Shown: positions 20,304-60,049, numbered from the stretch's first letter. The stretch: DNA of 64,000 bases from Bythopirellula sp. (GCA_965216565.1 OZ244170.1:672001-736000); one strand, 5' to 3'. Translations and numbers: made by a program. The notes: generated by a model from the sequence alone, not told the origin.

Positions 20304-20319
20304 GGAAAACTTCCTGCCG

Positions 20320-26006: not shown

Positions 26007-26020
26007 AGATCGAAGGTGGG

Positions 26021-27917: not shown

Positions 27918-27943
<26 letters not shown>
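26021..27943 (-). CDS. Exported FG-GAP/VCBS-repeat protein with ASPIC/UnbV domain (paralog of 22183-24069)
   Basis: Shared 'RKWD.P.VADLDQDG..DLLL.DH' and 'EIDYDNDGD.DLFLTR' motifs, C-terminal 'HVGLG...VRWTNG'. Confidence 0.85.
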
Positions 27944-29534
<1,591 letters not shown>

Positions 29535-29570
29535 AATCTCATCAGCTTCATTGTTCAGTTGTGAAAATTC

Positions 29571-31553: not shown

Positions 31554-31600
31554 GAGCCAGTTGCTCCTCGATTGCAATGTGAATTGGTAAAGACATCTTA

Positions 31601-33175: not shown

Positions 33176-33210
33176 ACTCTAGGTCTCAATTCTGGCGAGA
33201 GGACAGTCTT

Positions 33211-36143: not shown

Positions 36144-36167
36144 TCTTGATCTCCAAACTTGCAATAC

Positions 36168-37598: not shown

Positions 37599-37608
37599 CA
37601 GGCGCTCA

Positions 37609-39009: not shown

Positions 39010-39092
39010 ATCCCTTGGACCGATAATAAAGTGGGGAGTATTGGGCTTATCAAAAAAGATCAGGAGCCTTGAGAATAAAAAAATTGCCTCTG

Positions 39093-40181: not shown

Positions 40182-40219
40182 TCACACGCTCCAAATACTT
40201 AAATGCACAACCATGATCG

Positions 40220-40939: not shown

Positions 40940-40951
40940 TTCGTTAGAGGA

Positions 40952-43499: not shown

Positions 43500-43691
43500 G
43501 CAATTCAATCACTTACTTAAACGCAGGAAAAACCTGAGTAGTATTCGCATCGAGCTGCACAGCGAATGCTGTAGGGCTCGATTCGGGACATTGCGTCTCC
43601 CCGCTTTCATTCAAGCGAAAGCGCCCATTTGCGTGGGGGATAATTTAAGCCAAGTTGTCATACCTGGACCCCGTGTTCCACACCACGGTCC

Positions 43692-43705
43692 ACCAGTATA
43701 CCAGT
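43692..43705 (-). promoter_or_regulatory. GntR-type operator upstream of the catabolic operon
   Basis: ACCAGTATACCAGT (minus strand ACTGGTATACTGGT, containing a TATACT -10 box). Confidence 0.6.
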
Positions 43706-43851: not shown

Positions 43852-43882
43852 TTGACTAGGTGACTTAGTTCCGGTATACCGG
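43852..43882 (+). promoter_or_regulatory. Sigma70-like promoter of gntR overlapped by a palindromic operator
   Basis: TTGACT (43852-57), 17 nt, TATACC (43875-80). Perfect palindrome CCGGTATACCGG at 43871-43882. Confidence 0.7.
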
Positions 43883-44006: not shown

Positions 44007-44753
44007 ATGGCTACTGATGGAAAAGCATCGTTTCTTCGCCACGAAGCTTACGTCTATATCCAGGAGCAGTTGATCGCTGGTCGTTGGGGTCTGAATGATC
44101 GCATTTCGGAGAAGGCAGTTGCCGATGAACTGGGCATCAGTCGTACTCCTGTTCGCGAGGCAATTCGAAAATTGACCACCGAGGGGCTCCTCTATCAGGT
44201 CCCTTCCAGCGGAACGTTCGTCACTAAGCCCGATCGGCAGAGCATTGTCGAAATGTTCGAGGTCCGGTTGGCGCTAGAAGGACTTGCAGCTGAAAAGGCT
44301 GCTTTGATTATTCGTGCTCCGGAAGTGCGGGAGCTACAACGTCAGTTCATTGTGATGCGAAATGCTAGTCGTGCTTTTCGCGATTCTGGCGAGGATTTTA
44401 TGAGTGGAGAGATCTTGGATAGATTTCTCGTGGCCGATCGTTCGATGCACAAGACACTTCTGAGTGTTGCAGATAACAGAATGGCCTGGAATATCGTACA
44501 TAATAGCCGAATTCAAACGTTGATTTTTGGTCTTCACTCTTACGAGCGAGATCTTCACCACATCTCAATTTCTCTGCGTGCACATGGCCGAATTCTATTA
44601 GCGGTAAAGCAGCGAGATGGCATCGCGGCAAAGCACTGGATGGAAAGCCACGTGCGGAACAGTATGGGCGATGCACTTCGCGCTTATGATCATCAAAACA
44701 GTGCAAAGAATGTCGGTTCACGAAGGGAATCGCCTAATCCCGAAGTGCTGTAG
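44007..44753 (+). CDS. GntR-family (FCD domain) transcriptional regulator
   Basis: HTH 'SEKAVADELGISRTPVREAI', 'EVRLALEGLAA', FCD 'H..IL.A...RD...A...M..H'. Confidence 0.93.
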   Translation: MATDGKASFLRHEAYVYIQEQLIAGRWGLNDRISEKAVADELGISRTPVREAIRKLTTEGLLYQVPSSGTFVTKPDRQSIVEMFEVRLALEGLAAEKAALIIRAPEVRELQRQFIVMRNASRAFRDSGEDFMSGEILDRFLVADRSMHKTLLSVADNRMAWNIVHNSRIQTLIFGLHSYERDLHHISISLRAHGRILLAVKQRDGIAAKHWMESHVRNSMGDALRAYDHQNSAKNVGSRRESPNPEVL

Positions 44754-44855: not shown

Positions 44856-45971
44856 ATGGACGGTTGTGCAATCAGCAACAAAAACGTTGGTGTCTCTTTC
44901 CTGAGGCCCAACCAGTCGAATGCATCGCGCTTTAGATCGATAGACGCGCGTTTAGCTATTCAACATCCTAGAAAGCAGGCTTTTACGCTAGTTGAATTGC
45001 TAGTGGTGATCGCGATTATTGGCGTGCTGGTCGCATTGCTGCTTCCTGCAGTGCAGTCGGCGCGTGAAGCGGCGAGACGGGCTCAGTGCCTGAATAAGAT
45101 TAAGCAAGCTGGTTTGGCCATGCTGAATTTTGAATCCGCATTCGGCCATTTTCCAGAGGGTACCCGCGGAACGGGGCTCGATACGACTTGCGAGCCTTGG
45201 CCTAGTCTGGCCTTTGGCACTCGTACGCCAAACAATCCCTGTCAAAACGGACCAGGATGGACGATCTTGGTCTTGCCATACTTGGAGCAGCAGGCCCTCT
45301 TCGACCAATTCGACCAGGCCGGCCCGTTTTCGTATATCTATGGACAATGTACGAATAGCGTAAACAATCCGATCCAGCAAACTCCGCTGGGGTTGTGGCA
45401 GTGTACTAGTCATCCTTATGCCCAACCTGACACTCTCCATAGTACCTACTCTGCCTGCACCGGCGGCGGCGATTACGCAGAGCCCGACACAAGTCTCAGC
45501 AGCCCAAGGCTAGGCTGGGAATGCATCACGTTTCGTCCCAGAAGGCCTATCTTTACGAATGGAATTACCGGCTACGATTCCAGAACTACATTCGGTCAGA
45601 TAGAAGACGGCTCTTCCAATACATTTCTGATCGGCGAAACGCATCTCGTCTATCATCCCGATACGCATCCCAACGGGCCTAACTGGTACTCAGGTTGGTC
45701 TTCGTCTTTCGATACCAATAAGAACTTTGGCATCACGATCAATGCGGCTGCAGCTAGCCGTCCAATCAACTTTAGTCCCTTCAACATTGACGAAACTATC
45801 TGGAATCCTCCCGGAGATAGGGCTACCGAATTCGGCAGCTACCATCCTGGCGGAGCGCATTTTGTGTTTGCTGACGGTTCGGCCACATTTATTTCAGAAG
45901 ATGTTGACGAGTTAGCCTACTGGGCATTGGGCAGCAAGGATGACGGTGTACCTACAGGAGTTATACAGTGA
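44856..45971 (+). CDS. DUF1559 prepilin-type N-terminal / H-X9-DG protein
   Basis: 'AFTLVELLVVIAIIGVLVALLLPAVQSAREAARR', 'DGSSNTFLIGE', 'HPGGAHFVFADGS'. Confidence 0.93.
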   Translation: MDGCAISNKNVGVSFLRPNQSNASRFRSIDARLAIQHPRKQAFTLVELLVVIAIIGVLVALLLPAVQSAREAARRAQCLNKIKQAGLAMLNFESAFGHFPEGTRGTGLDTTCEPWPSLAFGTRTPNNPCQNGPGWTILVLPYLEQQALFDQFDQAGPFSYIYGQCTNSVNNPIQQTPLGLWQCTSHPYAQPDTLHSTYSACTGGGDYAEPDTSLSSPRLGWECITFRPRRPIFTNGITGYDSRTTFGQIEDGSSNTFLIGETHLVYHPDTHPNGPNWYSGWSSSFDTNKNFGITINAAAASRPINFSPFNIDETIWNPPGDRATEFGSYHPGGAHFVFADGSATFISEDVDELAYWALGSKDDGVPTGVIQ

Positions 45972-46396
45972 CTTATCAACGAGCATTTTTGCTAATTGCG
46001 ATGGTGATTTCTATCTCGGCAATAGGGTGCAGCGATGGCGGTGTACCAAGAAATAACCTAGCTGGAACTGTCACCTACGAAGGCAAGCCGGTCCCTGCTG
46101 GCAGAATCATGTTCCGCCCAGACCGCTCTAAGGGAGGAAAGGGGCCAGCCGGATTCGCTCAAATTGTAGATGGTAAATACGATACAAGTAGTTCAGGAAA
46201 AGGCGCTATCACTGGGCCTGTTGAAGTCTCTATTGAAGGCTTTGTTAGTAACCAGCCCTTGGCTCCGGCAATGTTTGTCCCTTACAAGACCACGACGGAT
46301 GTTTCGGGGGACGCCGAAGAGGTCGACTTTGTGGTTCCCGAAGGAACAGCTCCTCCAAAAAGCTGGCGAGTGCCTGCGAAGAGGGACGACGGTTAG
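45968..46396 (+). CDS. Small lipoprotein typically coupled to DUF1559 genes
   Basis: Lipobox 'AIGC', 'GTVTYEGKPV..G.I.F.P'. GTGA overlap with the DUF1559 stop. Confidence 0.8.
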   Translation: MTYQRAFLLIAMVISISAIGCSDGGVPRNNLAGTVTYEGKPVPAGRIMFRPDRSKGGKGPAGFAQIVDGKYDTSSSGKGAITGPVEVSIEGFVSNQPLAPAMFVPYKTTTDVSGDAEEVDFVVPEGTAPPKSWRVPAKRDDG

Positions 46397-46521
46397 TTTT
46401 TTAGAGAGTGAATTACCGAATTACAACTTGAAGGCAGCAGCTTAGCTTGCATGGATATTGCCTCTTATTTCAACCAATTGGATTTAACAACTCGCATCGG
46501 CAACAGAAATAGTCAATTACC

Positions 46522-49500
46522 ATGAATTTTCGAAATACCATATTTGCAGTAGCCACGTTCTCGCTAGCCGTGACTGTCACAACTCATTCGAGTCGAGCCC
46601 AAGCCACGCCCAATGTCGTGATGATCATCGCAGACGACGCGGGTTATGCGGACTGGGGGTTCATGAACGGGGTCAACGGTAGTAATCCTACACCGACTGA
46701 TATTCCCACGCCGAACCTCGATGCACTGGCAAATCGTGGCGTTAAGTTCTCCAGAGCTTATGTGCATTCCAATTGCCAGCCAACGCGTGCCGGTTTGGTT
46801 ACGGGCGGATATCCCTATCGCATCGGCAACGAAGTCGTTGGCAATAACTACTACTTGCCATCACAAGGTTTTGCACCTGATGGAGTTCCCGAGGGAGTTC
46901 CAGCGGCTACCGAGACCATCTGGGAACGCATGAAGTCGCAGGGCTATTCCACAGGTGCGATTGGCAAATGGCATTTGGGGCAAACTGAGGGAATCAATCG
47001 ACCGCAACATCAGGGAGTCGACGAATTCTACGGAATCTGGCACGGATCAAGAACCTATAGCGTCGGCAATGCTGGCCTGCCCGCAACGCAGCTATTGCGT
47101 GCAACAACTGTTGATCCTAATGGCTTGGTGAATGATACGGTTGTCGAGACCGATCCGAACAATAACGGCGAATACATCACCAACACTTTTGGTGACTACG
47201 CCGTGCAGTTCATCAACGAACATCACGACGACGCCGATCCTTTCTTCCTGTATCAGTCATTTACCGCCCCGCACACTCCAGTTGGAAATTCGCCTGACAT
47301 TAACGACCCAAGTATTGCTGGACTCACGGGCCAGAGAAAACAGTATGCATCGATGATGCTCACCATGGACAAGGAGATCGGCCGAATCATCGACCGCCTC
47401 GAAGATCCTGACGGAGACGGAAACACAAGTGACAGTATCACCGACGACACCATGATTGTGTTCATCAACGATAATGGTGGTGCCGATGCACTCTCTTCTT
47501 CTCCTAACGGGGCCGATAATGGTGTTCTTCGCCGCGGCAAAGGTACCCCTTGGGAAGGCGGTATTCGTGTACCCATGATTATTGCTGGGGCCGGGGTCAA
47601 TCAAGCTGTCGAGGGAACGACTTACAACAAGCCAGTCCACGGCATCGACATCCTGCCAACCGTGTTTAACGCAGGAGGAGGAACTTTCGGACCTGGCGAC
47701 ACAGGCATAGACGGGGTCGATCTGCTCCCGTTCATCAATGGCACAGACACCAACAACCCGCACGAAACCGTGCTGTATCGGCAACGCTCCCAGTTTGCCT
47801 TGATCAAAGACGATTGGAAACTCGTATGGTCGGGTGGATCCCCTTCGCCGAATCACCACCTTTACAATTTGGGGACGGACATTAGCGAAACCAACAACGT
47901 GGCCGGAGCGAATCCAGCATTAGTGGCTGAATTGCAACGCGACTTGACTGATCACGAAGTCGAGTTCGACAAGCAACGTTACGAAATCCTGGGCCAAACC
48001 TCTGAAACCACGATTAATATTTTCGATCACTTTACTCTCAATCCCACTGATCCTGGGGGCGGAGTCACCGATATCATCGAAGGCTCAACAGGCAATGGCG
48101 ACTTCGAAGATAGCGAAGATCCCGGCAACCCAGCCACAGTGACTGGCGCCATTGACTTTGCAAACACAGCGAACTGGTTCCACGCGAACAATACGGGTCC
48201 CAACGAGGGCATCAACTTTACGAACGACAGCCAGACGAACGGCAGCTCGCAAGGTGGTTCGCGGGCTGGCATGCCATTCCAGAACAGATTTCAGATCAAC
48301 GATTCTGGGTTCACCGTTACCGCAGCTGGCGAAACATTCGATCTAAGCTACGACTTTGGTGCCGGCGGAAACGATCTGAATTGGGATGGCGACGAGTTCT
48401 TGCGAGCGTTCCTTTTCACATCTACGACAGGTGTTGATGGCGATACGGTCGTCGGGGATATGACGGAAGTGGCCGTCGATATCTACAACGTTCCCGATCC
48501 AACTTCGAATCCCCAGTGGACGACCCACTCCTCCACAGCCTTCTACACAACAACCGCGGGCGATATCGGGAAGACGTTCTACTTTGGCATGGAGTTCAAG
48601 GATCCGGCGGTGACGAGCCTGTTGTTCCCACGCATCGATGTCATCGATCTTAGTGTCACTTCACCTGGTGGTGGGGGGGCCTCGGTGTCCGATTGGTCGG
48701 ACAATAACGCCTGGTTTGAAGGAGGCACGAGCAACTCCGAAACTCTGCTAAACGCCGATGCATTTGCTGGGGCCATTCTGGAATTTCCCACAACCGAGAC
48801 CTTCAGCTACGTGTCCAATAACGACATGATCCGCAACACAGGTCTGGAATTTATGCTGAATAAGATCATTCTCAGCGGCAATTTCACTGGTGGGTCTGAT
48901 CAAAACGCTACCATCCAGGGTAACGACTTGCTGTTTACGGATGACTTGAGTGGCGTTGGTCCTCAAATCGCAGTGGACGCCACGAATGGTGGCGGGAACG
49001 GTTTTAGCTACGACATTGATCTCAACTTGGTGATGTACGACGACCTCACGCTCACCGGCAATGGCGACGTGACTGTGACAATCAATGGTGTTGTCAGCAG
49101 CTATTTCGATCCGAGTGGTTTAATCAAAGACGGGACTAGCACGGTGGTGCTAACTGCAGCCAATACTTACGCCGGCGATACCTCGGTGCTGGACGGAACA
49201 CTCTCGCTCCAGAACGACTTCCTGGCCGACTTGGCTGATGTGTTGCTCACTACAGGCGGCATCTTAGACTTAGATTTTATTGGAACCGATACGATCGATT
49301 CACTGTTTATCGATGGCAACTCGCAAGCTGTGGGTACTTGGGGAGGAATCGGTTCGGGAGCGGATAATGAAACGAGCCTGATCACCGGGAGTGGTTTGTT
49401 GATGGTCTCTACGCTAGCTGGTCTGGCGGGCGACTTCGACAACAGTGGCCGAGTCGATGGACTCGACTTTCTCCTGTGGCAGCAAAACCCAAGTGTCGGC

Positions 49501-49635
49501 AGCCTTTCCGACTGGGAAGCCAACTATGGAATGACAGCCCCCATAGCTGCAAATGCCTCTGCGGTTCCAGAGCCTTCGTCAGCTGTTTTGCTCCTAGCGG
49601 GACTGGGGCTCGCCATTTCGCGCCGACGCAGATAG
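46522..49635 (+). CDS. Surface S1 sulfatase + inserted unknown module + autotransporter-associated beta-strand repeat + dockerin-like + PEP-CTERM
   Basis: Signal peptide, 'DDAGYAD', 'CQPTRA', 'GKWHLG', 'LIKDGTSTVVLTAANTYAGDTSVLDGTL', 'GDFDNSGRVDGLDFLLWQ', 'VPEPSSAVLLLAGLGLAISRRRR'. Confidence 0.9.
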   Translation: MNFRNTIFAVATFSLAVTVTTHSSRAQATPNVVMIIADDAGYADWGFMNGVNGSNPTPTDIPTPNLDALANRGVKFSRAYVHSNCQPTRAGLVTGGYPYRIGNEVVGNNYYLPSQGFAPDGVPEGVPAATETIWERMKSQGYSTGAIGKWHLGQTEGINRPQHQGVDEFYGIWHGSRTYSVGNAGLPATQLLRATTVDPNGLVNDTVVETDPNNNGEYITNTFGDYAVQFINEHHDDADPFFLYQSFTAPHTPVGNSPDINDPSIAGLTGQRKQYASMMLTMDKEIGRIIDRLEDPDGDGNTSDSITDDTMIVFINDNGGADALSSSPNGADNGVLRRGKGTPWEGGIRVPMIIAGAGVNQAVEGTTYNKPVHGIDILPTVFNAGGGTFGPGDTGIDGVDLLPFINGTDTNNPHETVLYRQRSQFALIKDDWKLVWSGGSPSPNHHLYNLGTDISETNNVAGANPALVAELQRDLTDHEVEFDKQRYEILGQTSETTINIFDHFTLNPTDPGGGVTDIIEGSTGNGDFEDSEDPGNPATVTGAIDFANTANWFHANNTGPNEGINFTNDSQTNGSSQGGSRAGMPFQNRFQINDSGFTVTAAGETFDLSYDFGAGGNDLNWDGDEFLRAFLFTSTTGVDGDTVVGDMTEVAVDIYNVPDPTSNPQWTTHSSTAFYTTTAGDIGKTFYFGMEFKDPAVTSLLFPRIDVIDLSVTSPGGGGASVSDWSDNNAWFEGGTSNSETLLNADAFAGAILEFPTTETFSYVSNNDMIRNTGLEFMLNKIILSGNFTGGSDQNATIQGNDLLFTDDLSGVGPQIAVDATNGGGNGFSYDIDLNLVMYDDLTLTGNGDVTVTINGVVSSYFDPSGLIKDGTSTVVLTAANTYAGDTSVLDGTLSLQNDFLADLADVLLTTGGILDLDFIGTDTIDSLFIDGNSQAVGTWGGIGSGADNETSLITGSGLLMVSTLAGLAGDFDNSGRVDGLDFLLWQQNPSVGSLSDWEANYGMTAPIAANASAVPEPSSAVLLLAGLGLAISRRRR

Positions 49636-49784
49636 GTCAATCAAGCTTGGAACGGAAATTATCGAGTTGAAATCCACATCGGACTTCCGTTTATGGTATT
49701 TCACCAATGCTGGAGGACGTTTCGAAGAATTCAGCCGTAAATGCTCATTTTTTGCGAGATAGGCAGGATATAACGAACAAATAA

Positions 49785-49816
49785 TTGACACCAATTTTAC
49801 CAACCGGTATACTGGT
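49785..49816 (+). promoter_or_regulatory. Sigma70 promoter overlapped by a GntR-type operator
   Basis: TTGACA (49785-90), 17 nt, TATACT (49808-13), within ACCGGTATACTGGT (49803-49816). Confidence 0.75.
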
Positions 49817-50074
49817 CTTCGTAATTGGTATCCGTCGAATCTGGAGCAGTCTATGCCTGCGATCAGTTCACGCTCGGAGCATCATACGTCTCATCTTTTT
49901 TCTGTTCACGAACTTAATCTGAGGGCTTCTCACTAAGCAGTTATTCAAAGCTCGATTTCATTGTCCTGCTGATGGATGACGCCCGCACTATTTCATAAAC
50001 AACACTGTTTTTCTCGATGCATCGAATGCATTGGATAACTTATCGTTACACACGGTCGAGGGAAGGAAGATCTA

Positions 50075-51694
50075 ATGAGCAACCTGATAAGACTGGCTCT
50101 CCTAGTCGTATTCATAACTGCCAGTAGCCAAGTTCAGGCGGTTGAGACCATCATCATAAATGGCACGGTTGGTGACGGCGACTTTGAGTTTCCAGAAGAT
50201 CCTAATAACCCTGGTTTAGTGACCGGAGCTGTCCCATTCACGGGGCATCCCAATTGGTTTCACGCCAACAATACCGGGCCAAATGAAACGATTCCTTTCT
50301 CACAAGATTCGCAAACTAACGGCAGTTCTCAGCCTGGTTCACGAGCCGGAATGCCGTTTCAAAATCGGGTTCAAATCAATAACACTGCCTATACCATCAC
50401 CGAGGCAGGAGTGCCATTCAACATCAGCTATGACTTTGGAGCGGGCGGTAACGCTGCCAATTGGACCGGCGACGAAGTAATGCGAACATTCTTGTTCGAG
50501 TCGTCAACGCCAGTCGATCCGAACACGATTGTTGGCGACATCACCGAACTCGGTGCCGATCTTTACAATATCGATCGAGCCAACGATCCCCAGTGGACAA
50601 CTAGATCGACAGATGCCTTCTATACGTCCACCGTTGGCGACATTGGCAAGACCGTGTATTTCGGAATGGAATTTCAAGACCCTGCGGGGCCCCTCCTTTT
50701 CCCCCGTATCGATGTCGTCCGCTTCACTGCGGGGACACCTGAAATCTACGATTTGGAATTCAATGCAGCCCTTAACCCTGCCGATGGCACGACCGCCTGG
50801 CAGCCCAATGTCGATCAAGGTCCGCAACCGGGTGGGCAGCCCACCGAATTCTTCACCTTCGCTGCTGCAGAATCCTTCGCTACGGTCAACGATCCTAGCG
50901 TTCCCGGAATTACGGGTAGCTACAGTGCCGGTGGAGTAGGGCGTCTGCCTGCCCCTTCGGAAGGTGCGGCCGGCCAGGTCGATAGTTCTTTTGAAGTTTG
51001 GTTCAAACCCAATAGTCTATTGGATGGCGAGCAAGTGATCGCTGATTTTGGCGGACTTTCAAATGGTTCGTACATTAGCCTCGATGACAATATCCTCAGT
51101 TTCTACACTACCTCGGGAGGTGCTTCCGGGACGGTATCGACTACGCTAAGCAGCGACGATTGGACACAAGTCGTTGCCAATTGGACCCCCACCGGTGACC
51201 TCGAACTGTTTGTGAATGGGCAGTCTGTTGACACTGCTTCGGGAACAGCGTTCAACAGATTTGGTGGCGGCAATCAGTGGGGACTTGGACAGGTGGGTGG
51301 CGACCCCAATGATGGACTTGCTATCGGAGGCCCGGTCACAACCGATCCCAACAATATCAGCGACGTCGATTTCGCTGGTGAAATTGGCCTATTCCGATAC
51401 TATCCGATTGCCCTTTCGGGTTCTCAAGTTCTAGATTCCTACGATGCCATTGCTGCTGCGGGAATCGCGGGCGATTTCGACGGTAGCGGTGTTGTAGACG
51501 GCCTCGATTTCCTGCTCTGGCAGACCGACCCCAATGTGGGTGATCTGGCTGACTGGGAGAATAACTACGGCACAGGCGGTTTGTCTGCGAATGTCTCTGC
51601 TGTTCCTGAGCCTGGTAGTTTGATGCTGTTTGCTTGTACGGCCATTTCTGTCGCGTTGCGGCGGAAGAGAGGTCTTACTTACTGCTTAAAGTAA
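50075..51694 (+). CDS. Surface protein: unknown module + LamG/ConA-like domain + dockerin-like + PEP-CTERM
   Basis: Signal peptide, shared 'GDGDFE...FPRIDVV' module, LamG 'SFEVWFKP...WTQVVANW...LFVNG', 'VPEPGS...RRKR'. Confidence 0.85.
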   Translation: MSNLIRLALLVVFITASSQVQAVETIIINGTVGDGDFEFPEDPNNPGLVTGAVPFTGHPNWFHANNTGPNETIPFSQDSQTNGSSQPGSRAGMPFQNRVQINNTAYTITEAGVPFNISYDFGAGGNAANWTGDEVMRTFLFESSTPVDPNTIVGDITELGADLYNIDRANDPQWTTRSTDAFYTSTVGDIGKTVYFGMEFQDPAGPLLFPRIDVVRFTAGTPEIYDLEFNAALNPADGTTAWQPNVDQGPQPGGQPTEFFTFAAAESFATVNDPSVPGITGSYSAGGVGRLPAPSEGAAGQVDSSFEVWFKPNSLLDGEQVIADFGGLSNGSYISLDDNILSFYTTSGGASGTVSTTLSSDDWTQVVANWTPTGDLELFVNGQSVDTASGTAFNRFGGGNQWGLGQVGGDPNDGLAIGGPVTTDPNNISDVDFAGEIGLFRYYPIALSGSQVLDSYDAIAAAGIAGDFDGSGVVDGLDFLLWQTDPNVGDLADWENNYGTGGLSANVSAVPEPGSLMLFACTAISVALRRKRGLTYCLK

Positions 51695-51701
51695 TTTGAT
51701 T

Positions 51702-51733
51702 TCGGCCCTGCTCCGGGGCAGGGGTAGGGCTGA
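51702..51733 (+). terminator. Stem-loop after PEP-CTERM gene (terminator or mRNA stabiliser)
   Basis: TCGGCCCTGCTCC/GGGGTAGGGCTGA, a 13-bp stem with G.U pairs that form only on the + strand RNA. Confidence 0.55.
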
Positions 51734-51828
51734 GAAAAAGTTTTTGTGTTTAGTGTTTTGAGTAGAATTGACTGGGGGCTTTTGCCTTTTCAACTATTTT
51801 TTGTTTCTTTTTGAGGGAGACGAGTCTA

Positions 51829-52566
51829 ATGAATTACATGACAAAATTCTTAGCGGCATTGGCTATCTTGGCCATGGCCACCAACGCCCAAGCGGTCAGT
51901 ATCATTGGTGGATCGCTGGGCAACGGTGATTTCAACGCTGGTGGTGGTGGTACTGCAGGTGGAGCTCAAACCTACAACCAAACAGTAAATTGGTTCAACG
52001 CGCAGGGCACGGCTGCTGACGATGACATCAACTTTACTAACTCATCGCAAATGGGTGGCAGCACCGATCCCGATAACGGGACGACTACACGAGGTGGAAT
52101 GCCTTTCCAAAATCGAGTCCAAATCAATGACACTGGCTACACGATCGGAGCCGCGGGTGAGGTATTTAGCTTGAGTTATGATTTCGGAGCTGGTGGTGGT
52201 CCCGCTTCTTGGAACGGTGGTGGTGACGAAACGATGCGGACTTTCTTGTTCACTTCGACCACCCCGATCGACCCTAACACGGTCGAAGCCGATATGACTG
52301 AACTCGGTGGCGACGACTACGACATCGATCGAGCCAACGATGGTCAATGGACGACTCGTTCCGTACCAGTCTTCTACACCTCGACACTCGCCGATGTTGG
52401 TAGCACTGTGTACTTCGGAATGGAGTTCCTAAACGATTCCGGGAACCTGCTTTTCCCACGCATCGACGTTGTCCAACTAGATGTAACACCAATTCCCGAG
52501 CCATCCAGTCTGGCTTTGCTGGGAACGATAGTTGCCGCGGGACTATCCGTGAGACGTCGACGCTAG
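51829..52566 (+). CDS. Surface protein: unknown module alone + PEP-CTERM
   Basis: GAGGGAGA RBS, signal peptide, one copy of the shared module, 'IPEPSSLALLGTIVAAGLSVRRRR'. Confidence 0.88.
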   Translation: MNYMTKFLAALAILAMATNAQAVSIIGGSLGNGDFNAGGGGTAGGAQTYNQTVNWFNAQGTAADDDINFTNSSQMGGSTDPDNGTTTRGGMPFQNRVQINDTGYTIGAAGEVFSLSYDFGAGGGPASWNGGGDETMRTFLFTSTTPIDPNTVEADMTELGGDDYDIDRANDGQWTTRSVPVFYTSTLADVGSTVYFGMEFLNDSGNLLFPRIDVVQLDVTPIPEPSSLALLGTIVAAGLSVRRRR

Positions 52567-52605
52567 CCTGAAGAGATTCTCTCTCTGTTTTTGTTGATCT
52601 ACATT

Positions 52606-52635
52606 GGATCGCCCCGCGATTGAGCGGGGCGGTCC
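52606..52635 (+). terminator. GC-rich stem-loop, probable intrinsic terminator
   Basis: GGATCGCCCCGC-GATTGA-GCGGGGCGGTCC followed by TTGTT. Confidence 0.6.
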
Positions 52636-52916
52636 TTGTTGATCTAAAACGGCACAGTGCCGGCATGCCTTAGCGGTTTGCCAGTTGTTGCTTGTTGTGG
52701 AATCTTTGCGCAATCACTGTCTGTGAACTTTGTTACGTGCAATCTTGTTAAGTTGCATTCGCTGCGCTCATCGAGCGCGTTAGAAACATCTGGTAAGGAG
52801 TTTTGTGACTCATTAAGTCAAATTTAGGGATCAATTTTGAACTAAGCCAAACACTAGCCTGAGAGCAAATCGGAACTTGTCGTTTGGTTGCAAACATTCA
52901 AGCAGGAGTCATACCG

Positions 52917-54542
52917 ATGAAACGTTGCAAGTGGTCAGCTCTATTAGCGATCCTTCTCATGTTGTCGACCAGTCGTGTGCAGGCAATAGAGACCTTTATT
53001 CTTGGAGACGGTTTCGGTGTGAATGGAATCGCATCGTCTGGGAATGGGAACTTCGAGGCAAACTCGGGAACGCTTTCGTTCGCTGATGTCACAAATTGGC
53101 ACAATATCAGTGGCGACGACTCGGCCGTGAATTTTGGCACCAGCTCAGGCATGGTCGGTAGCCCGGAGCCTTCTTCCCAGGGCGCATTCCTTACGGATGC
53201 CAAAGCTGGAAACGACTTTGGTTACACTATTCTTGCAGGTGATGTGGGTGTTCCGTTCAACGCTCGCCTGGCTTTGCATCGATTTGGCGGAGGATATAGC
53301 GGCAGTGAATTTGTGGAAGTGTCTCTTTTTACGTCTACCACCGGTGTCGACCCGAATACTGTGGCCGGTGATCTTACCACACTTGGTTCAGTGAACATCC
53401 CGATTACTGGCAGTTGGGTTCGAGAAGAGAGACTCAACTTTTACTCACCATCGCTCGCTGACGTGGGAAAAACGGTCTATCTAGGAATAGACTTGGAAGA
53501 TCCAAACGGAGTCGGATCAATTTTTCCACGTATTGATGTTGTTCGACTCTCGAAGGGCGCCGCTGATTCATTCGGCTTGCAATTCAACGCGGCTCTAAAT
53601 CCGGTGAATGGTACTGGACTGTGGGAGCCCAATATTGACACCGCCGCCGGAGGCGCATTTTTCCCAACCGAGTTCTTTACCTTTGGCTCCACCACAAGCT
53701 CTGTCGCTGTAAACGATCCTAGCGTTCCGGGTATCACAGCAAGTTACGATGTTGGTGCTCAAGGTCGACAATTCTTCGATCCGAACACAGGTTCCAACGC
53801 CAATGCCCCAGGCTACCAGGGTGGGTTCGATGCCTCGTTCGAAGTCTGGTTTAAACCGGATGATCTCGCTGGTGGCGATCAAATCATTCTCGAAATGGGT
53901 GGTAGTGGAAACGGTTCGTACTTTAGTCTGGAAGATGACGTCCTTTCGTTCTATTCGCGAAGTGGTGGCGTCAATGGTCCGACGCTGCAAACGACGCTCA
54001 CGACGGCAGAGTGGACTCAAGTGGTTGGCACCTGGGAAGGTTCCACCGAGACGCTTCAACTTTTCGTCAATGGTCAGTTTGTTACCAGTGCCGTTGCAGC
54101 CGGAGACCTAGTCGAATGGGCTGGTGGCAACGCCTGGGGCGTAGGCCAGATTGGCTCATCCGATAATCTGACTGGGCTAGACGACATTGCCACCGGTGGG
54201 CCCTTGGGTTCCGAAACGTCTGCCAACGACTTTGTGTTCGATGGTGAGATTGCCATCATCGAGTTGTATGACAAAGTTTTAAGCGCCTCGGAAGTGACCG
54301 ACGCTTACAACGCGGTTACCGGAATTGCCGGTGACTTCGACAACAGCGGCGTTGTCGATGGCCTCGACTTCCTCCTGTGGCAGACAGACACCAGCATTGG
54401 CGATTTGGCCGATTGGGAAGCCAACTATGGTACCGGCGGACTATCGGCGGCGGGCACGGCAGTACCTGAGCCTAGTGCACTCGCTTTGTTGATCCCACTG
54501 CTATGTGGTGCTGCCCTCCGACGAACTCGCGTCAGCGCATAG
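52917..54542 (+). CDS. Surface protein: divergent unknown module + LamG-like + dockerin-like + PEP-CTERM
   Basis: AGGAG RBS before ATG 52917, signal peptide, 'GNGNFE...FPRIDVV', 'SFEVWFKP', 'GDFDNSGVVDGLDFLLWQ', 'VPEPS'. Confidence 0.85.
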   Translation: MKRCKWSALLAILLMLSTSRVQAIETFILGDGFGVNGIASSGNGNFEANSGTLSFADVTNWHNISGDDSAVNFGTSSGMVGSPEPSSQGAFLTDAKAGNDFGYTILAGDVGVPFNARLALHRFGGGYSGSEFVEVSLFTSTTGVDPNTVAGDLTTLGSVNIPITGSWVREERLNFYSPSLADVGKTVYLGIDLEDPNGVGSIFPRIDVVRLSKGAADSFGLQFNAALNPVNGTGLWEPNIDTAAGGAFFPTEFFTFGSTTSSVAVNDPSVPGITASYDVGAQGRQFFDPNTGSNANAPGYQGGFDASFEVWFKPDDLAGGDQIILEMGGSGNGSYFSLEDDVLSFYSRSGGVNGPTLQTTLTTAEWTQVVGTWEGSTETLQLFVNGQFVTSAVAAGDLVEWAGGNAWGVGQIGSSDNLTGLDDIATGGPLGSETSANDFVFDGEIAIIELYDKVLSASEVTDAYNAVTGIAGDFDNSGVVDGLDFLLWQTDTSIGDLADWEANYGTGGLSAAGTAVPEPSALALLIPLLCGAALRRTRVSA

Positions 54543-54581
54543 CACTTTTTGCCACTTGGCATCATTGTTGATAGGTTATTC

Positions 54582-54613
54582 GGGGCCACTCCGTGTATTC
54601 ACGGGGTGGCCCC
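54582..54613 (+). terminator. Intergenic stem-loop
   Basis: GGGGCCACTCCGTG-TATT-CACGGGGTGGCCCC, a 14-bp stem with one U.G pair. Confidence 0.6.
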
Positions 54614-54658
54614 CCTATTTGAGTGTAGGGACTGTACTTGAACAGAGACGAAACTGTC

Positions 54659-57307
54659 ATGCAACTTCAATTCAAGGCTGCTCTGTGCACCGTATTTGTT
54701 CTGGCCACCTTTGCTACGAGTTTACAGGACATCGCACACTCTTCTCCGAACGTTATCGTCATCATCACCGACGACGCAGGTTATGCCGACTTCGGATTCA
54801 TGAACGGCCTCAGCGGCGAGACTTCTGAGATTCCGACGCCAAACCTCGATGCCCTGGCAGCCAGAGGCGTAAAATTCTCCCGGGCCTATGTTGCCGCTAA
54901 TTGCCAACCCACCCGAGCAGCGATCGTCACCGGTGGCTATCAACAACGTATCGGCAACGAGAGCGTGGGAAACAATCTCACTTATGCGGTGGATGACGCC
55001 CAGATTGCGACTCGCGGTTTCGAAGGTGTTCCCGTCGAGACCGACACGATTTGGGACCGCATGAAGGGACTTGGATATTCAACAGGAGCCATTGGAAAGT
55101 GGCACCTTGGTCAGCACGCGGATTCAGCCAATGGCCAGGTGCTGGGTAATCGTCCCCAGAATCAAGGCGTGGACGAGTTCTACGGTTTTTGGCACGGAGA
55201 CCGAAACTACAAATTGGGCACCTACGGGGCTAGCCAGGTAACTCGTTCGCTTCGTGAAACAATAGTCGATCCGAATGGCAACGTCACAGATACGGTTGTC
55301 GAGCACGCCCCGAAGCATACCCAGCCAAGCGATGCATACTTGACCGAGGCTCTGGGAGATTACGCAGTCGACTTTATCGATGACCATCACGATGACGCGA
55401 ACCCATTCTTCCTCTACCAATCATTCGGTGCTCCTCACAAGGTTTGGACTGAATCGCCGGATTACAATGACCCGGCAATCACTCACTTATCCGATCCACG
55501 CCGGAAAGTCGCATCGATGATGATCACGATGGACAAGCAAGTAGGCAGAATCCTCGACAAGTTAGACGACCCCGACGGCGATCCAAACACCAGCGACGGC
55601 ATTGCCGACGACACCTTGGTAGTCTTTATCAATGACAACGGCGGGGTTAACAATAACCCACCGGGGACGGATAACGGAGTCTTGAATCGTTGGAAAGGAT
55701 CTCCGCTGGAGGGTGGAATTCGAGTCCCGATGATTGTGGCCGGCGCAGGCGTCAACGCGGGAGTCGAAGGGACTACCTACACTAAGCCTGTTCACGGCAT
55801 CGACATTCTACCGACGGCATTTGCCGCGGCCGGGGGAACTTTTGGTCCCGCAGAAGACAAAATCGATGGCGTAGACATATTGCCTTTTATCAATGGCACT
55901 GACACTTCCAGTCCCCACGATGTTCTAGTCCATCGCTGGCGAGGAAATTTTGCGGTAGTGAAGGGCGACTGGAAACTCGTCAATAGAAAGAACCATAAGT
56001 CGAATCCGAATCAATATGAACTCTACAACGTTACCAATGATATTGGAGAAACGAATGACGTCATCGGGAATGCAACTCATTCAGCATTGGTTGCTGAGTT
56101 GAAGCGTGATTTGACCAACCACGAGGCGTTTTTTGACAAGCCTCGTTATGCAATCCTCAATCGGACTCCAGAGACAGAACCGCTGAACTTGTTCGACCAT
56201 TTCGTCTTTCGTCCTGGCGTCCATACGGATTGGTCTGGCGGTGCTGAGGATGGTGATCTCGAAACCGATCCGGGAGTTTCAACCAATTGGTTTGAAGCGG
56301 GCACTACGAATCAGAATTTACTTTTTCGTTCAGACTCCTTCGCTGGCGCAGTGCTGGAATTCCCCACACATAGCAGCAACTACACAGCAAATAACGACAT
56401 GGTGCGGAAGACTGGCCTAGAATTCATGCTGAACAAAATCATTCTCAGCGGCACGTTCAACAGTGGGTCGAATCGTTCGGCTACGATCCAGGGCAACAAT
56501 CTCTTGTTCACCAACGATCTGAGTGGCGTTGGCCCTCAATTCGCAGTAGATGCCACCGACACTGGTGGCGGTACCTTTACCTACGATATTGACCTGAACC
56601 TGATCATGTACGACGACCTCACATTCACCGGTGATGGCGACGTAACGGTCAATGTCAACGGCGTGGTCAGCAGTTACTTTGATCCCAGCGGACTCATCAA
56701 AGACGGCACCAGCACTGTTGCTCTAACCGCCAACAACACCTACACCGGCGATACCACGGTGCTGGACGGCACGCTTTCTCTCCAGAACGACTTCCTAGCA
56801 GACTTGGCCGATGTGTTTCTCACCACAGGCGGATTTTTGAACTTGGACTTTATTGGGACCGACACTATCGATTCGCTATTTATCGATGGCTCCACCCAAG
56901 CGGTGGGAACCTGGGGAGCCATTGGCTCGGGAGCGGATAACGAGACGAGTCTTATCACCGGTTCGGGGCTCTTGATGGTTTCGACCCTGGCTGGATTGGC
57001 AGGTGATTTTGACGGCAACGGACGCGTCGACGGTTTGGACTTCCTCAAATGGCAGACTGATGGCCTGTCGGCCAGTGATCTGGCCGATTGGGAAGCTAAC
57101 TACGGGATGGTTGCACCTAACACTGCCAACGTGACCACCGTGCCTGAACCAGCGAGCTGGGCGATTCTAGCTATTGCCGCCTGCCTCTTGGGATATGTTC
57201 GGTCTAGGCCTCTCGAATGCAAACTTAGGCCATTTTCCGTATCGACGCATTCACAATCATACCCAGGAAAGCTCACGTCTAGATTGCAAGAGCCTCCTCA
57301 AGTGTAA
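54659..57307 (+). CDS. Surface S1 sulfatase + autotransporter-associated beta-strand repeat + dockerin-like + PEP-CTERM (paralog of 46522)
   Basis: 'DDAGYADFGFMNG', 'CQPTRA', C-terminal region nearly identical to 46522-49635, 'VPEPASW'. Confidence 0.9.
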   Translation: MQLQFKAALCTVFVLATFATSLQDIAHSSPNVIVIITDDAGYADFGFMNGLSGETSEIPTPNLDALAARGVKFSRAYVAANCQPTRAAIVTGGYQQRIGNESVGNNLTYAVDDAQIATRGFEGVPVETDTIWDRMKGLGYSTGAIGKWHLGQHADSANGQVLGNRPQNQGVDEFYGFWHGDRNYKLGTYGASQVTRSLRETIVDPNGNVTDTVVEHAPKHTQPSDAYLTEALGDYAVDFIDDHHDDANPFFLYQSFGAPHKVWTESPDYNDPAITHLSDPRRKVASMMITMDKQVGRILDKLDDPDGDPNTSDGIADDTLVVFINDNGGVNNNPPGTDNGVLNRWKGSPLEGGIRVPMIVAGAGVNAGVEGTTYTKPVHGIDILPTAFAAAGGTFGPAEDKIDGVDILPFINGTDTSSPHDVLVHRWRGNFAVVKGDWKLVNRKNHKSNPNQYELYNVTNDIGETNDVIGNATHSALVAELKRDLTNHEAFFDKPRYAILNRTPETEPLNLFDHFVFRPGVHTDWSGGAEDGDLETDPGVSTNWFEAGTTNQNLLFRSDSFAGAVLEFPTHSSNYTANNDMVRKTGLEFMLNKIILSGTFNSGSNRSATIQGNNLLFTNDLSGVGPQFAVDATDTGGGTFTYDIDLNLIMYDDLTFTGDGDVTVNVNGVVSSYFDPSGLIKDGTSTVALTANNTYTGDTTVLDGTLSLQNDFLADLADVFLTTGGFLNLDFIGTDTIDSLFIDGSTQAVGTWGAIGSGADNETSLITGSGLLMVSTLAGLAGDFDGNGRVDGLDFLKWQTDGLSASDLADWEANYGMVAPNTANVTTVPEPASWAILAIAACLLGYVRSRPLECKLRPFSVSTHSQSYPGKLTSRLQEPPQV
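57050..57150 (+). repeat. 101-bp direct repeat, copy 1 (dockerin-like/PEP-CTERM linker)
   Basis: Matches 58291-58391 with 2 mismatches (compared by eye). Confidence 0.9.
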
Positions 57308-57321
57308 ATAAGGACTGATCA

Positions 57322-58464
57322 ATGGAACGGCCCCGGATGGCTTTGCCAATTTGTCTTGCTTCGCATGCAATCTTGACGTGCGCAATATCCGCGAATGCTC
57401 AGGACTGGTCTAGTTATTCTGTTCCAGCAAGCGCGGGAACGGGTCAGCATTGGGTACTAGATCCGAATCTGTCTGACGAATTCAACTACGACAGTGCAAC
57501 TCCCGCAGGCCAATCTGAATTCTTCGCTAACTGGCAGGACTGGAAGCCGAACTTCTTTCTCGGTCCCGGAGCGACATACTTTTCGCAGGAGAATTGGTTT
57601 GTGGATAGTGGTGCTATGACCATTTTTGGTTCTCGAGTTCCTCTGGAAGATCAGATCGTCAATACCTCCGATCCCAATTTCACTCGCACCACCTATACCA
57701 GCTTTATCACCTCCAAAGCCAAGCTCCAACCTGGAAGTTACACCGAGGCCATGATCAAGGGAGGTGGCACTGCCTTGTCGACAAATTTTTGGTTGATCGA
57801 CGACGGGGATGTTACTGAAATTGATGTTCTTGAGATCTACGGAGATACCGATTGGTTTCGTAAGCGGCCAAGAACGAATGCGATCTTTCAGATACGTGAT
57901 CAGAACGGAAATCTGATCCAGAAAATTGGGAGTCAGATGACTCATCCCAACAATGATATCAACTACTCACAAACCTGGCACCGCTATGGGGTTTACTGGG
58001 CCAGTACGACAGATCTTGAGTTTTATATCGATGGCAATCTAGTTCGAACCATCAATCTTCCGAGCGAAGTTGTCGACCCTACCGGGAACTACATGAACAG
58101 AGATCTGCGTCTTATCTTCGATATGGAAGCTCATGCTTGGCGCGGAGCAGCGGGAATTCCTTCTGACGCGGAATTGAATGACTGGAGTATCAACAATATG
58201 CAAATCGATTGGGTCCGCACTTATCGTGCTGCAGAACTAAGCGGCGATTTCGACTCTGACGGACGAGTCGATGGCTTGGATTTTCTCAAGTGGCAGACTG
58301 ATGGCCTGTCGGCCAGTGATCTGGCCGATTGGGAAGCTAACTACGGTATGGTTGCACCTAGCACTGCCAACGTGACCACCGTGCCTGAACCGTCCACATT
58401 GGTACTAATCACTCTTTCACTTGGCCTGATTCGGCGACAATCCAATAGAAACAGAAACGTGTAA
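57322..58464 (+). CDS. Surface GH16 (beta-agarase/porphyranase-like) + dockerin-like + PEP-CTERM
   Basis: 'QDWSSYSVPASAG...SDEFNY', 'GPGAT', catalytic 'EIDVLE', 'HRYGVYW', 'IDWVRTY', 'VPEPST'. Confidence 0.85.
   Translation: MERPRMALPICLASHAILTCAISANAQDWSSYSVPASAGTGQHWVLDPNLSDEFNYDSATPAGQSEFFANWQDWKPNFFLGPGATYFSQENWFVDSGAMTIFGSRVPLEDQIVNTSDPNFTRTTYTSFITSKAKLQPGSYTEAMIKGGGTALSTNFWLIDDGDVTEIDVLEIYGDTDWFRKRPRTNAIFQIRDQNGNLIQKIGSQMTHPNNDINYSQTWHRYGVYWASTTDLEFYIDGNLVRTINLPSEVVDPTGNYMNRDLRLIFDMEAHAWRGAAGIPSDAELNDWSINNMQIDWVRTYRAAELSGDFDSDGRVDGLDFLKWQTDGLSASDLADWEANYGMVAPSTANVTTVPEPSTLVLITLSLGLIRRQSNRNRNV
58291..58391 (+). repeat. 101-bp direct repeat, copy 2
   Basis: Matches 57050-57150 with 2 mismatches. 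Confidence 0.9.
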
Positions 58465-58511
58465 GCGACGTAATCCAAAGCATTTGGTAAATTAGAAGAT
58501 GAGATCGACCT

Positions 58512-59564
58512 ATGAATAAGACTAGCTCCAACACGCTCTCGATCATCTGCAATGGTCGCCTTTTGCGGAAGGCTTTCACGCTTGTAGAACTCCTGGTTGT
58601 GATTGCAATTATTGGAGTTCTAATTGCTCTGCTACTTCCCGCTATTCAGTCAGCCCGCGAGTCGGCCCGGCGGATGCAGTGCATCAACAACCTTAAGCAG
58701 GTACTTTTAGCGACCCTTAACTATGAATCGGCCCGTGAAGAACTCCCGAGAGGCTCCCTCCTCATTGAAGAAAACAGTACCGGCGGCTTCGATCGAGTTG
58801 AGCAGCCAGGTGTTTTGGCTACCATACTCCCTTACGCTGAAAACTCGGCGTTGCACGGCCTTGTCGACTTCAACAAGAGCACCAACCAGTTGATACCTGG
58901 AACCACTCAAAATGTTGGCTCGATTGAGGTGGGAATGTACACCTGTCCCAGTGACCCAACAGAGCGAGTTGCGGAAAACCCAAACGCTACCGGCAGTGCC
59001 GTGGGGCTATTGTGGGCTATGACGAGTTACGCCGCGTCCAACGGTTCAGGAAGACTAGCCGACAACTCCGGTTGTTCATGTAACAAGCAACTCGAGTGGA
59101 ATGCATTCGCAGAATATCCCAAAAACCCAAACTTGAACGTAGTCAACGATTTCAAAAAACTCGATGAATACAGCGGACCATTTTCCAGGTTTGCCTTCCC
59201 GACCAAGCTGCGTCAGATAACCGATGGGACCTCGAATACAATATTCTTCGGAGAAGTCCGTCCCGACTGCTCCAATCATGTCCGCCGTGGATGGTTTCAC
59301 ACAAATAACGGCAGCGGTTTGGTAAGTACCATCGTTCCAATCAATTGGGATAGTTGCCAACTAGAAAGCAGTAGCGCTGATGGCTGTAACAAGCCGTGCA
59401 ACTTCAATTCTGAATTAGGCTTTAAATCGCTTCATCCTGGTGGTGCAAACTTCGGATTGGGGGATGGAAGTGCACATTTCATCTCCGAGAGCATTGATAC
59501 TTGGGCCTTTCAGTATTTAGGTGGTAAAGCGGATGGCCAAATTATTGTTGGCCATGAGTTTTAA
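58512..59564 (+). CDS. DUF1559 prepilin-type N-terminal / H-X9-DG protein
   Basis: 'AFTLVELLVVIAIIGVLIALLLPAIQSARESARR', 'CPSD', 'DGTSNT...GE', 'HPGGANFGLGDGS'. Confidence 0.93.
   Translation: MNKTSSNTLSIICNGRLLRKAFTLVELLVVIAIIGVLIALLLPAIQSARESARRMQCINNLKQVLLATLNYESAREELPRGSLLIEENSTGGFDRVEQPGVLATILPYAENSALHGLVDFNKSTNQLIPGTTQNVGSIEVGMYTCPSDPTERVAENPNATGSAVGLLWAMTSYAASNGSGRLADNSGCSCNKQLEWNAFAEYPKNPNLNVVNDFKKLDEYSGPFSRFAFPTKLRQITDGTSNTIFFGEVRPDCSNHVRRGWFHTNNGSGLVSTIVPINWDSCQLESSSADGCNKPCNFNSELGFKSLHPGGANFGLGDGSAHFISESIDTWAFQYLGGKADGQIIVGHEF

Positions 59565-59973: not shown

Positions 59974-60049
<76 letters not shown>

Follow-up and report, generated by a model that had tools for sequence, protein, structure and literature searches.

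A proposed envelope arm of a carrageenan locus in Bythopirellula sp.: PEP-CTERM sulfatases, a shared module and a pilin-like DUF1559 cassette

Introduction

Capture and import of polysaccharides by planctomycetes without the SusC/SusD pair is an open question (PMC12078418, PMC11131199), and it is raised anew by a locus of Bythopirellula sp. (GCA_965216565.1). The window, i.e., the whole stretch of 64,000 nucleotides analysed here (OZ244170.1:672001-736000, or G000:C1:672001-736000), carries on its plus strand (44007-59564) a gntR gene, a DUF1559 gene (DUF1559a), a gene for a 142-aa lipoprotein, genes for six PEP-CTERM proteins and a second DUF1559 gene (DUF1559b); a catabolic arm diverges from it on the minus strand. 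On balance, the plus-strand run is probably the envelope arm of a carrageenan locus, in which displayed PEP-CTERM proteins would bind the polymer through a shared domain (module X) and desulfate it, with GntR predicted to control both arms.

The genome holding the window (G000; 5.21 Mb, 94% complete) was compared with other genomes, referred to below as G001, G002, G011, G013, G018, G095, G096 and G098. The named homologues of the window proteins are from Lacipirellulaceae, from which we infer this family for the host.

Layout of the Proposed Envelope Arm

The genes of the arm following gntR are as follows.

44856..45971, plus strand: DUF1559a, with prepilin-type N-terminus and H-X9-DG tail; core gene (family cut-offs, synteny)
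45968..46396, plus strand: small lipoprotein, 142 aa, lipobox IGC, overlapping the DUF1559a stop codon (orthologues at 50-57%)
46522..49635, plus strand: sulfatase A (1037 aa), S1_19-related, with module X (48064-48666), autotransporter-type repeat, dockerin-like motif and PEP-CTERM; core gene
50075..51694, plus strand: non-catalytic protein, 539 aa, with module X (50144-50737), LamG-like domain, dockerin-like motif and PEP-CTERM
51832..52566, plus strand: non-catalytic protein, about 245 aa, with module X alone (51892-52494) and PEP-CTERM
52884..54542, plus strand: non-catalytic protein, 552 aa, with divergent module X (53013-53561), LamG-like domain, dockerin-like motif and PEP-CTERM
54638..57307, plus strand: sulfatase E (889 aa), S1_19-related, without module X, with autotransporter-type repeat, dockerin-like motif and PEP-CTERM with extended tail
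57322..58464, plus strand: GH16 (380 aa), closest to beta-agarases, with PEP-CTERM; variable gene
58512..59564, plus strand: DUF1559b, of a separate clade, with no lipoprotein after it

A preliminary description, made from the sequence alone, had placed these genes correctly, all on the plus strand, and all the genes it named are present, but the lipoprotein gene at 45968-46396 had been overlooked. The content it gave was also confirmed: two sulfatases (CQPTR), one GH16 (EIDVLE) and three non-catalytic proteins, forming six consecutive exported PEP-CTERM proteins. Each of the six has a signal peptide and ends in [VI]PEP, a hydrophobic stretch and basic residues; PF07589 is matched above its cut-off in three of them, below it in two and not at all in one, and about 30 extra residues follow the basic cluster in sulfatase E. 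A single exosortase gene was found elsewhere in the genome (PF09721, 186 bits, G000:C1:4778479-4779237). Hence the arm shares with the PEP-CTERM/exosortase system (TIGR02595, PF07589, EpsH PF09721; PMC1569441) the signal peptide, the PEP motif, the hydrophobic helix, the basic cluster and a genomic exosortase. The targets treated in that paper are mostly single-gene, non-enzymatic and linked to exopolysaccharide, whereas the present ones stand in a catabolic locus as a run of six genes, three of them for enzymes. By regular expression, the genome holds 243 PEP-CTERM-like open reading frames (ORFs); PEP-tailed sulfatases are three among its 33 sulfatases, two of them in the arm.

The motif GDFD..G.VDGLDFL.WQ, reported in the preliminary description for five of the six proteins, is indeed found in five, being absent from the module-X-only protein (51832..52566). 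The dockerin type I family PF00404 has no match in the arm at E<=0.001 and 33 matches elsewhere in the genome; the arm motif looks like a degenerate relative, common to about 58 ORFs, 54 of which are PEP-tailed. Dockerin-like domains are also carried by Lacipirellula sulfatases (PMC6995999). A dockerin-like motif on exported enzymes brings to mind the cellulosome or "planctosome" (PMC6461901), but the genome gave no match to cohesin (PF00963; controls positive), on which ground a cellulosome or scaffold was rejected here. Dozens of unrelated proteins have the motif immediately ahead of their PEP-CTERM, each thus appearing to bear an anchor of its own.

The destination of these proteins bears directly on the explanation. 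In the defining PEP-CTERM paper, surface sorting is a proposal (PMC1569441). In Akkermansia, three PEP-CTERM proteins were found only in the outer-membrane fraction, although the PEP-CTERM proteins overall were more abundant in intracellular fractions (PMC4960237), which speaks against surface display. Together with the uptake of polymer into an enlarged periplasm by planctomycetes (PMC12078418, PMC11131199), this gives room for a rival with the same regulon and substrate, in which the PEP-CTERM proteins would be periplasmic or bound to the inner membrane and act after whole-polymer "selfish" uptake by an unknown route. Such a scheme is judged unlikely. The locus already contains tail-less S1_19A- and S1_19B-like sulfatases with plain signal peptides in its catabolic arm, so the second, multimodular set is better explained by another compartment; moreover, stalks of the Ig, cadherin or PKD kind, as usual in extracellular enzymes, are found among the homologues.

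Predicted Control Shared with the Catabolic Arm

The following elements of the predicted control region were recognized.

43694..43704, plus strand: operator-like palindrome in the dau-side part of the divergent promoter region (pattern match)
43871..43882, plus strand: perfect palindrome covering the -10 box predicted ahead of gntR (unchanged throughout the 3-genome alignment)
44007..44753, plus strand: GntR/FCD (FadR-type) regulator (orthologues in G001, G002 and G013)
49785..49815, plus strand: sigma70-like promoter TTGACA-17-TATACT inside the PEP-CTERM arm, with an operator over its -10 box

In the 3-genome alignment of the dauB-gntR gap, a TTGAC box is followed downstream by an invariant CGGTATACCGGT. 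Three sites of the window (43694, 43872 and 49805; 0.06 expected) match the pattern C[AG]GTATAC[CT][AG]G; all lie in promoter regions, and the third covers the -10 box of a promoter matching the sigma70 consensus at 11 of 12 positions. We take such a palindrome to be an operator of the FadR/GntR type. The dau-side site has matching counterparts in G001 and G002 and a near match in G013, and a site lies upstream of a module-X gene in each of these three genomes, where gntR orthologues (72-77% identical) occupy the same locus. Sites inside the locus make up three of seven in G000, three of five in G001, four of four in G002 and two of two in G013, while G018, of the same genus as G000 and lacking the locus, has six scattered ones. 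At two mismatches, the pattern is at chance level (38 vs 46.6); so is the generic promoter scan overall (14 vs 16.0), from which only the 11/12 site at 49785 was used.

Shared control with the divergent arm, as the preliminary description had it, is thus supported by the same predicted operator recurring in both arms in four genomes. GntR is likely the repressor of both arms, and shared regulation of the core is well supported by this comparative evidence.

Two further, tandem sites of G000 precede a gene 1.95 Mb away. Its product is a secreted GH42-like protein of 801 aa (G000:C1:2674651-2677609; L054:4651-7617), matching the module-X-carrying GH42-like proteins at 24-29% and similar in size and kind to the GH167 exo-carrageenases (PMC6923384). 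It is a candidate GH167-type member of the regulon that could supply the missing exo-enzyme for the beta-linkage. About 20 kb from this gene (2654023-2655219) lies an 82% identical paralogue of the sugar kinase of the locus.

Probable Substrate of the Locus

The substrate is indicated by the divergent arm, whose dau names were assigned by family match and gene order.

17848..43508, minus strand: whole catabolic arm (family matches and gene order; dau names after PMC5698469)
42342-43508, minus strand: DauB cycloisomerase (enolase family)
40952-42352, minus strand: DauA (aldehyde dehydrogenase)
40220-40939, minus strand: DauD (2-keto-3-deoxy-6-phosphogluconate, KDPG, aldolase)
39093-40181, minus strand: DauC kinase (PfkB)
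37609-39009, minus strand: S1_19B-like sulfatase
36168-37676, minus strand: S1_19A-like sulfatase
34701-36164 and 33211-34704, minus strand: the two GH16 of the catabolic arm
Rest of the arm, minus strand: sugar porter, GH127, further sulfatases, FG-GAP/ASPIC proteins, FAD oxidoreductase, galactonate dehydratase and a major facilitator superfamily (MFS) transporter

The dagA (GH127)/dauA/dauB/dauD core of PMC5698469 is clustered here, as judged by family and order, and is syntenic in G001, G002 and G013. By family matches, there are four sulfatases in this arm. One of them scores 616 bits against 6BIA and 608 against the iota-carrageenan sulfatase 6B0J, and another 591 bits against the exo-4S-kappa sulfatase 6PRM; hence galactose-4-sulfate (G4S) sulfatases of both the S1_19A and the S1_19B type are present. 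Both GH16 enzymes find their best match in 9IJC and are presumably of the GH16_13 type; assignment to kappa-carrageenase was rejected (NCBIfam scores of 59 and 32 bits vs a cut-off of 350). Overall, the red-algal galactan proposed earlier as the target stands, narrowed to carrageenan by the S1_19A/B matches, GH127 and the Dau-type enzymes. Among 401 genomes of the phylum, DauB was found at E<=1e-100 only in G000.

The locus resembles those of Zobellia galactanivorans and Pseudoalteromonas (PMC5698469, PMC6923384) in DauA-D, GH127, S1_19A/B-like enzymes, a permease, a regulator and desulfation before GH16. Those loci rely on SusC/SusD or a TonB receptor, and their sulfatases are single-domain and for the most part periplasmic, whereas the present arm adds the DUF1559/lipoprotein pair, the multimodular PEP-CTERM sulfatases and the module-X proteins.

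Other genes of the catabolic arm include two secreted FG-GAP/ASPIC-UnbV proteins (22183-24069 and 26021-27943; no solved relative was found for the one searched), at least one FG-GAP gene recurring in G001 and G013, and a secreted FAD oxidoreductase (24069-26006). At its end (17848-20303), the arm encodes an MFS transporter and a galactonate dehydratase that passes the NCBIfam cut-off with 676 bits, which suggests that the galactose half of the polymer takes an oxidative route. In all three relatives, the arm is closed instead by a planctomycete cytochrome c/DUF1549/DUF1553 gene (L012:5200-9524, L016:15063-17900, L020:7526-12013), absent at this position from G000 and accompanied by DUF1501 in G001 and G013.

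Module X

The domain shared by sulfatase A and the three non-catalytic proteins comprises about 200 residues and, according to BLAST, occurs within the genome only in these four copies. No Pfam family matches it, and no solved relative was found by sequence profile. Among 120 genomes of the family, strong matches are confined to four, and G095 has a weak match. The same four and G098 hold DauB at E<=1e-80, and in the four module-X genomes DauB (at least 71%) adjoins module X.

The profile of module X collects 102 cluster representatives, 57 of them at E<=1e-10; 53 representatives were scanned with Pfam. Strong copies are fused to S1_19A-like sulfatases (P0151, P0183), to a GH16 of the catabolic-arm type (P0164) and to GH42-like enzymes (P0160, P0165, P0170). 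A protein of 3723 aa (P0181) joins the arm's type of sulfatase, four weak copies of module X, a GH16 and cadherin/Ig repeats, as a one-chain counterpart of the arm. Homologues are recorded in Adhaeretor mobilis and Planctomycetes bacterium MalM25.

A model built from 66 sequences (pLDDT 93) predicts a jelly-roll. It is similar to CBM4-2 (Z 12.6, root-mean-square deviation, rmsd, 3.1, 151 aligned residues), among the carbohydrate-binding modules (CBMs), as well as to CBM16, a porphyran-binding CBM (Z 11.4) and the N-terminal domain of GH51 (Z 13.6); a structure atlas returned DUF642/HpiC1/CBM_4_9 at 0.87-0.90. Overall, the likeness to CBM4, CBM16, CBM22, the porphyran CBM 8XMZ and DUF642/HpiC1-like domains amounts to Z 11-13.6 and an rmsd of about 3 A over 135-171 residues. 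Jelly-roll CBMs are likewise attached to glycan-active enzymes and often tandem, but the identity is only 10-15%, and module X has no Pfam family. Thus, module X is a discrete non-catalytic fold attached to carbohydrate-active enzymes, and the binding role given to the shared modules in the preliminary description is made plausible by the modelled CBM-like fold and by the fusions to carrageenan-type enzymes. Possibly, module X represents a new family of carrageenan-binding modules.

PEP-Tailed Sulfatases

Aligned to 6PRM, sulfatases A and E both retain C-x-P-x-R, GKWH, NDNG and the catalytic His; the S1 catalytic residues are thus intact, with the metal ligands and the catalytic Lys also in place. 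In a quick tree, the PEP-tailed sulfatases form a separate clade (support 99), sister to S1_19B-like enzymes (SH-aLRT 95); P0037, P0058 and P0084 were poorly trimmed, with about 20% of columns filled. The clade consists of large multimodular enzymes across Planctomycetota and Verrucomicrobiota (464 matches at E<=1e-60). Of the best 120 among the 464 homologues, 50 terminate in PEP-CTERM, and most of the rest have C-terminal tails of other kinds; module X, strong or weak, is found in 48. Judging by these sequences, it is a candidate clade of multimodular S1_19-related sulfatases spanning the Planctomycetes-Verrucomicrobia-Chlamydiae (PVC) group.

DUF1559 Proteins, the Lipoprotein and the Lack of SusC/SusD

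No SusC, SusD or TonB receptor was found among the window genes scanned, as previously noted, and in the genome PF00593 and PF07980 gave no match, the controls being positive. Still, the "SusC/D-free system" of the preliminary description stands only in part: in 46 of the family's 71 good genomes, no TonB receptor was detected either, so this absence is a lineage trait and nothing special to the locus, and SusCD-less carrageenan loci of Planctomycetes had already been reported (PMC5698469). In the polysaccharide utilization loci of Bacteroidota, SusC and SusD are adjacent; the DUF1559/lipoprotein/PEP-CTERM cassette stands in their place here.

Both DUF1559 proteins have the N-methyl prepilin motif, PF07596 and TIGR04294, with all three cut-offs passed. 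The genome yields 65 DUF1559 matches, and 30 of 59 such genes have a PEP-CTERM gene on the same strand within two genes (background 8.2%; mean 6.7 and maximum 15 in 1000 circular shifts). In these genome-wide pairing counts the present run is taken as five rather than six PEP-CTERM genes, since the regular expression missed the GH16 tail. A short lipoprotein ORF follows 17 of 60 DUF1559 genes vs 10 of 300 controls, and 12 of 59 lie near sulfatases (4.6% in the background). Six other cassettes of G000, picked out of about 60 for nearby PEP genes, lie beside regulators, transporters, sulfatases or glycosidases. In a tree of 71 rows (60 paralogues of G000 and 11 from related loci; bootstrap not fully settled), five DUF1559a copies form one clade and DUF1559b belongs to another, each with support 100/99. 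In G001, the catabolic arm has at its far end a second gene of the DUF1559a clade, accompanied by its lipoprotein and by a sulfatase (L012:994-4262).

Hence DUF1559a and the lipoprotein are a locus-specific copy of a genome-wide pilin-like cassette. The role of the cassette is the weakest step of the explanation: most likely, DUF1559a would be a substrate-specific pilus or pseudopilus subunit for capture, whereas a transport role, also raised in the preliminary description, is possible but of low probability. Pilin-like proteins in glycan capture are envisaged in the planctomycete "fishing-rod" pilus hypothesis (PMC12078418) and, in a PVC bacterium, with the type IV-like MUL2 pilus of Akkermansiaceae (PMC13174399); the latter is one conserved four-gene locus, whereas DUF1559 comes as about 60 paralogues with a locus-specific copy. 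Secretins and ATPases of the type II secretion system and type IV pilus are present in the genome. A bolder and rather doubtful scheme would make DUF1559 and the lipoprotein the substrate-specific part of a secretin-based polysaccharide importer replacing SusC/SusD, operating with a displayed module-X family and a new extracellular sulfatase clade, the about 60 cassettes providing one adaptor per nutrient.

The abundance of such genes can be read differently. DUF1559 proteins with prepilin motifs are scattered across planctomycete genomes, in many cases with signal-peptide genes on either side (PMC8567305), and react to cold and to salt stress (PMC2754498); the genome at hand has about 240 PEP-CTERM and 60-65 DUF1559 genes, and module X is acidic and Ser/Thr/Asn-rich. 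Accordingly, the arm could build an adhesion or matrix coat that is induced by carrageenan and also scavenges some sulfate; DUF1559 and its lipoprotein would then be generic operon passengers without a role in capture or uptake. This is the least probable of the rivals, since the locus-specific clade and the position of DUF1559a are kept across three genera, even in the rearranged G013, DUF1559 genes are enriched near sulfatases, and module X is fused to catalytic galactan enzymes. The open full-text literature, to which the search was limited, yielded no paper linking DUF1559 with polysaccharide loci or reporting carrageenan enzymes with PEP-CTERM.

Conserved Core and Variable Genes

A search for synteny recovered the locus in three relatives, G001, G002 and G013, which represent two genera other than that of G000. 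All three hold the catabolic arm with gntR, DUF1559a (51-58% identical to that of G000), the lipoprotein (50-57%), sulfatase A (61-64%) and module-X proteins, the order being rearranged in G013. Sulfatase E is present in one of the three syntenic loci, the PEP-tailed GH16 and DUF1559b in none. The distal genes (GH16 and DUF1559b) are probably later, variable additions, and they lack an upstream operator. For these reasons, the "bracketing" of the arm by DUF1559 genes, taken in the preliminary description as a matter of design, was rejected as a conserved trait; among nine nearby same-strand DUF1559 pairs of the genome, only that of the locus encloses at least five PEP genes.

The PEP-tailed GH16 has an intact E-x-D-x-x-E, and its closest solved relatives, distant as they are, are the beta-agarases 3WZ1 (129 bits) and 1O4Y (111 bits), with no kappa-carrageenase among 14 matches. 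Over 149 nt, its tail is 91% identical in DNA to the tail of the neighbouring sulfatase E, indicating recent grafting. Cutting at the surface, the third element of the "bind, desulfate and cut" apparatus proposed earlier, therefore rests on one variable enzyme closest to beta-agarases.

These features, along with the membership of DUF1559b in another clade that also occurs beside other genes in G095 and G011, lend weight to a mosaic origin, in which the genes from gntR to the module-X proteins constitute the carrageenan regulon and the distal GH16 and DUF1559b, perhaps with sulfatase E, would have been acquired on their own, as a unit directed at agar, porphyran or hybrid galactans. A mosaic is a real possibility, though short of even, and is compatible with the envelope-arm explanation. 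It is opposed by the distance of the GH16 from agarases (about 130 bits) and by G098, in which a DUF1559b orthologue and the orthologous gntR are transcribed divergently from either side of the operator, close to dauB/C/D, so the DUF1559b clade can serve the same pathway and the same logic recurs with other parts. The variant locus of G098 (L045-L046, G098:C1:1245001-1285000) comprises orthologous gntR, the operator, the DUF1559b-type gene, a lipoprotein, GH2, a RhaT-like transporter and dauB/C/D, as well as a GH42-like gene, sulfatases and PEP-CTERM beta-helix proteins; it has no strong match to module X.

Points Weighing against the Envelope-Arm Explanation

A number of observations do not sit easily with the envelope arm as proposed. 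The operator pattern was derived from the window sites themselves and overlaps the -10 consensus, so the real test lies in the sites of other genomes. No exact or one-mismatch site was found upstream of the last four genes, terminator-like hairpins occur at 51700 and 52606, and nothing homologous to the distal GH42-like gene is found in G001 or G002. As for module X, each copy has 6-9 K/R vs 19-29 D/E, a composition not expected of a polyanion-binding domain, so that its attachment to highly sulfated chains cannot be taken for granted. Its top fold match is tied with an HpiC1-type cyclase (Z 13.6), Foldseek ranks Eph ligand-binding domains first, and weak homologues also occur on PhoD, metallophosphatase and other GH proteins; a fold by itself does not reveal what a domain does.

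The PEP-tailed sulfatases are about 34% identical to S1_19B, and of the residues F103/Y455/Y458 at its -1 subsite, the exo shelf Y455/Y458 is lacking (alignment to T/T and P/E); hence their target is not fixed. Relatives at E<=1e-90 were found in 21 of 120 genomes, most of them without DauB, and a copy in G096 (61%) has no carrageenan genes within 40 kb, so the clade is not confined to carrageenan loci. Finally, the four genomes with the locus are kin rather than independent cases, and the co-inheritance of DUF1559a could reflect the transfer of one island.

Proposed Course of Carrageenan Breakdown

With these points taken into account, binding and desulfation at the surface are still deemed likely, judging from the genes and their conservation, and the envelope arm would operate as follows. 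The GntR repressor would lift upon appearance of an intermediate of the anhydro-galactose pathway. The PEP-CTERM proteins would be exported by Sec, processed by the exosortase and retained in the outer envelope, where module X would hold the cell on the carrageenan-rich algal wall, probably via weakly sulfated blocks or calcium, as proposed because of its acidity. Removal of galactose-4-sulfate would turn kappa/iota chains into beta/alpha-type chains, to be cut by the two GH16 of the catabolic arm; this order is modelled on Pseudoalteromonas, where S1_19A must desulfate the chain before GH16B cuts (PMC6923384). The S1_19A/B enzymes, further sulfatases, GH127, the distal GH42-like enzyme, the sugar porters and DauA-D would then complete the breakdown.

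Genomic Setting

The edges of the locus are marked by two tRNA genes.

17527-17624: tRNA-Sec, left edge
59975..60049, minus strand: tRNA-Val, right edge

Between them, the G+C content is 50.6-51.3% vs 53.6% in the genome; neither DauB nor module X turned up in 26 further genomes of this genus. The locus is possibly an acquired island. Outside it, the window holds a selenocysteine cluster (11684-17624: selA, selB, a pyridine-nucleotide oxidoreductase/SelD-like fusion and tRNA-Sec) and, at 540-7807, a MoxR AAA ATPase, DUF58 and two VWA/BatA proteins. Contigs of short-read run X3, possibly from the source sample, span 43000-60001 without differing letters. No RNA run was recorded as containing 43500-53400, which says nothing about expression. 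An algae metagenome of one study (run X6) contains several pieces of the arm (150-240 nt, 0-2 differences, depth 2-4), which fits an organism of algal surfaces.

Implications

DUF1559 is among the most expanded families of planctomycetes and has no assigned function. Two candidates emerge from the locus: the module X family and the PVC-wide sulfatase clade. The locus links the DUF1559/lipoprotein/PEP-CTERM cassette with a single substrate that is defined and can be bought, a single predicted repressor site and few genes, and the presence of module-X homologues in named strains brings knock-out, induction and binding tests within reach. It thus represents an unusually well-defined test case for the DUF1559 question.

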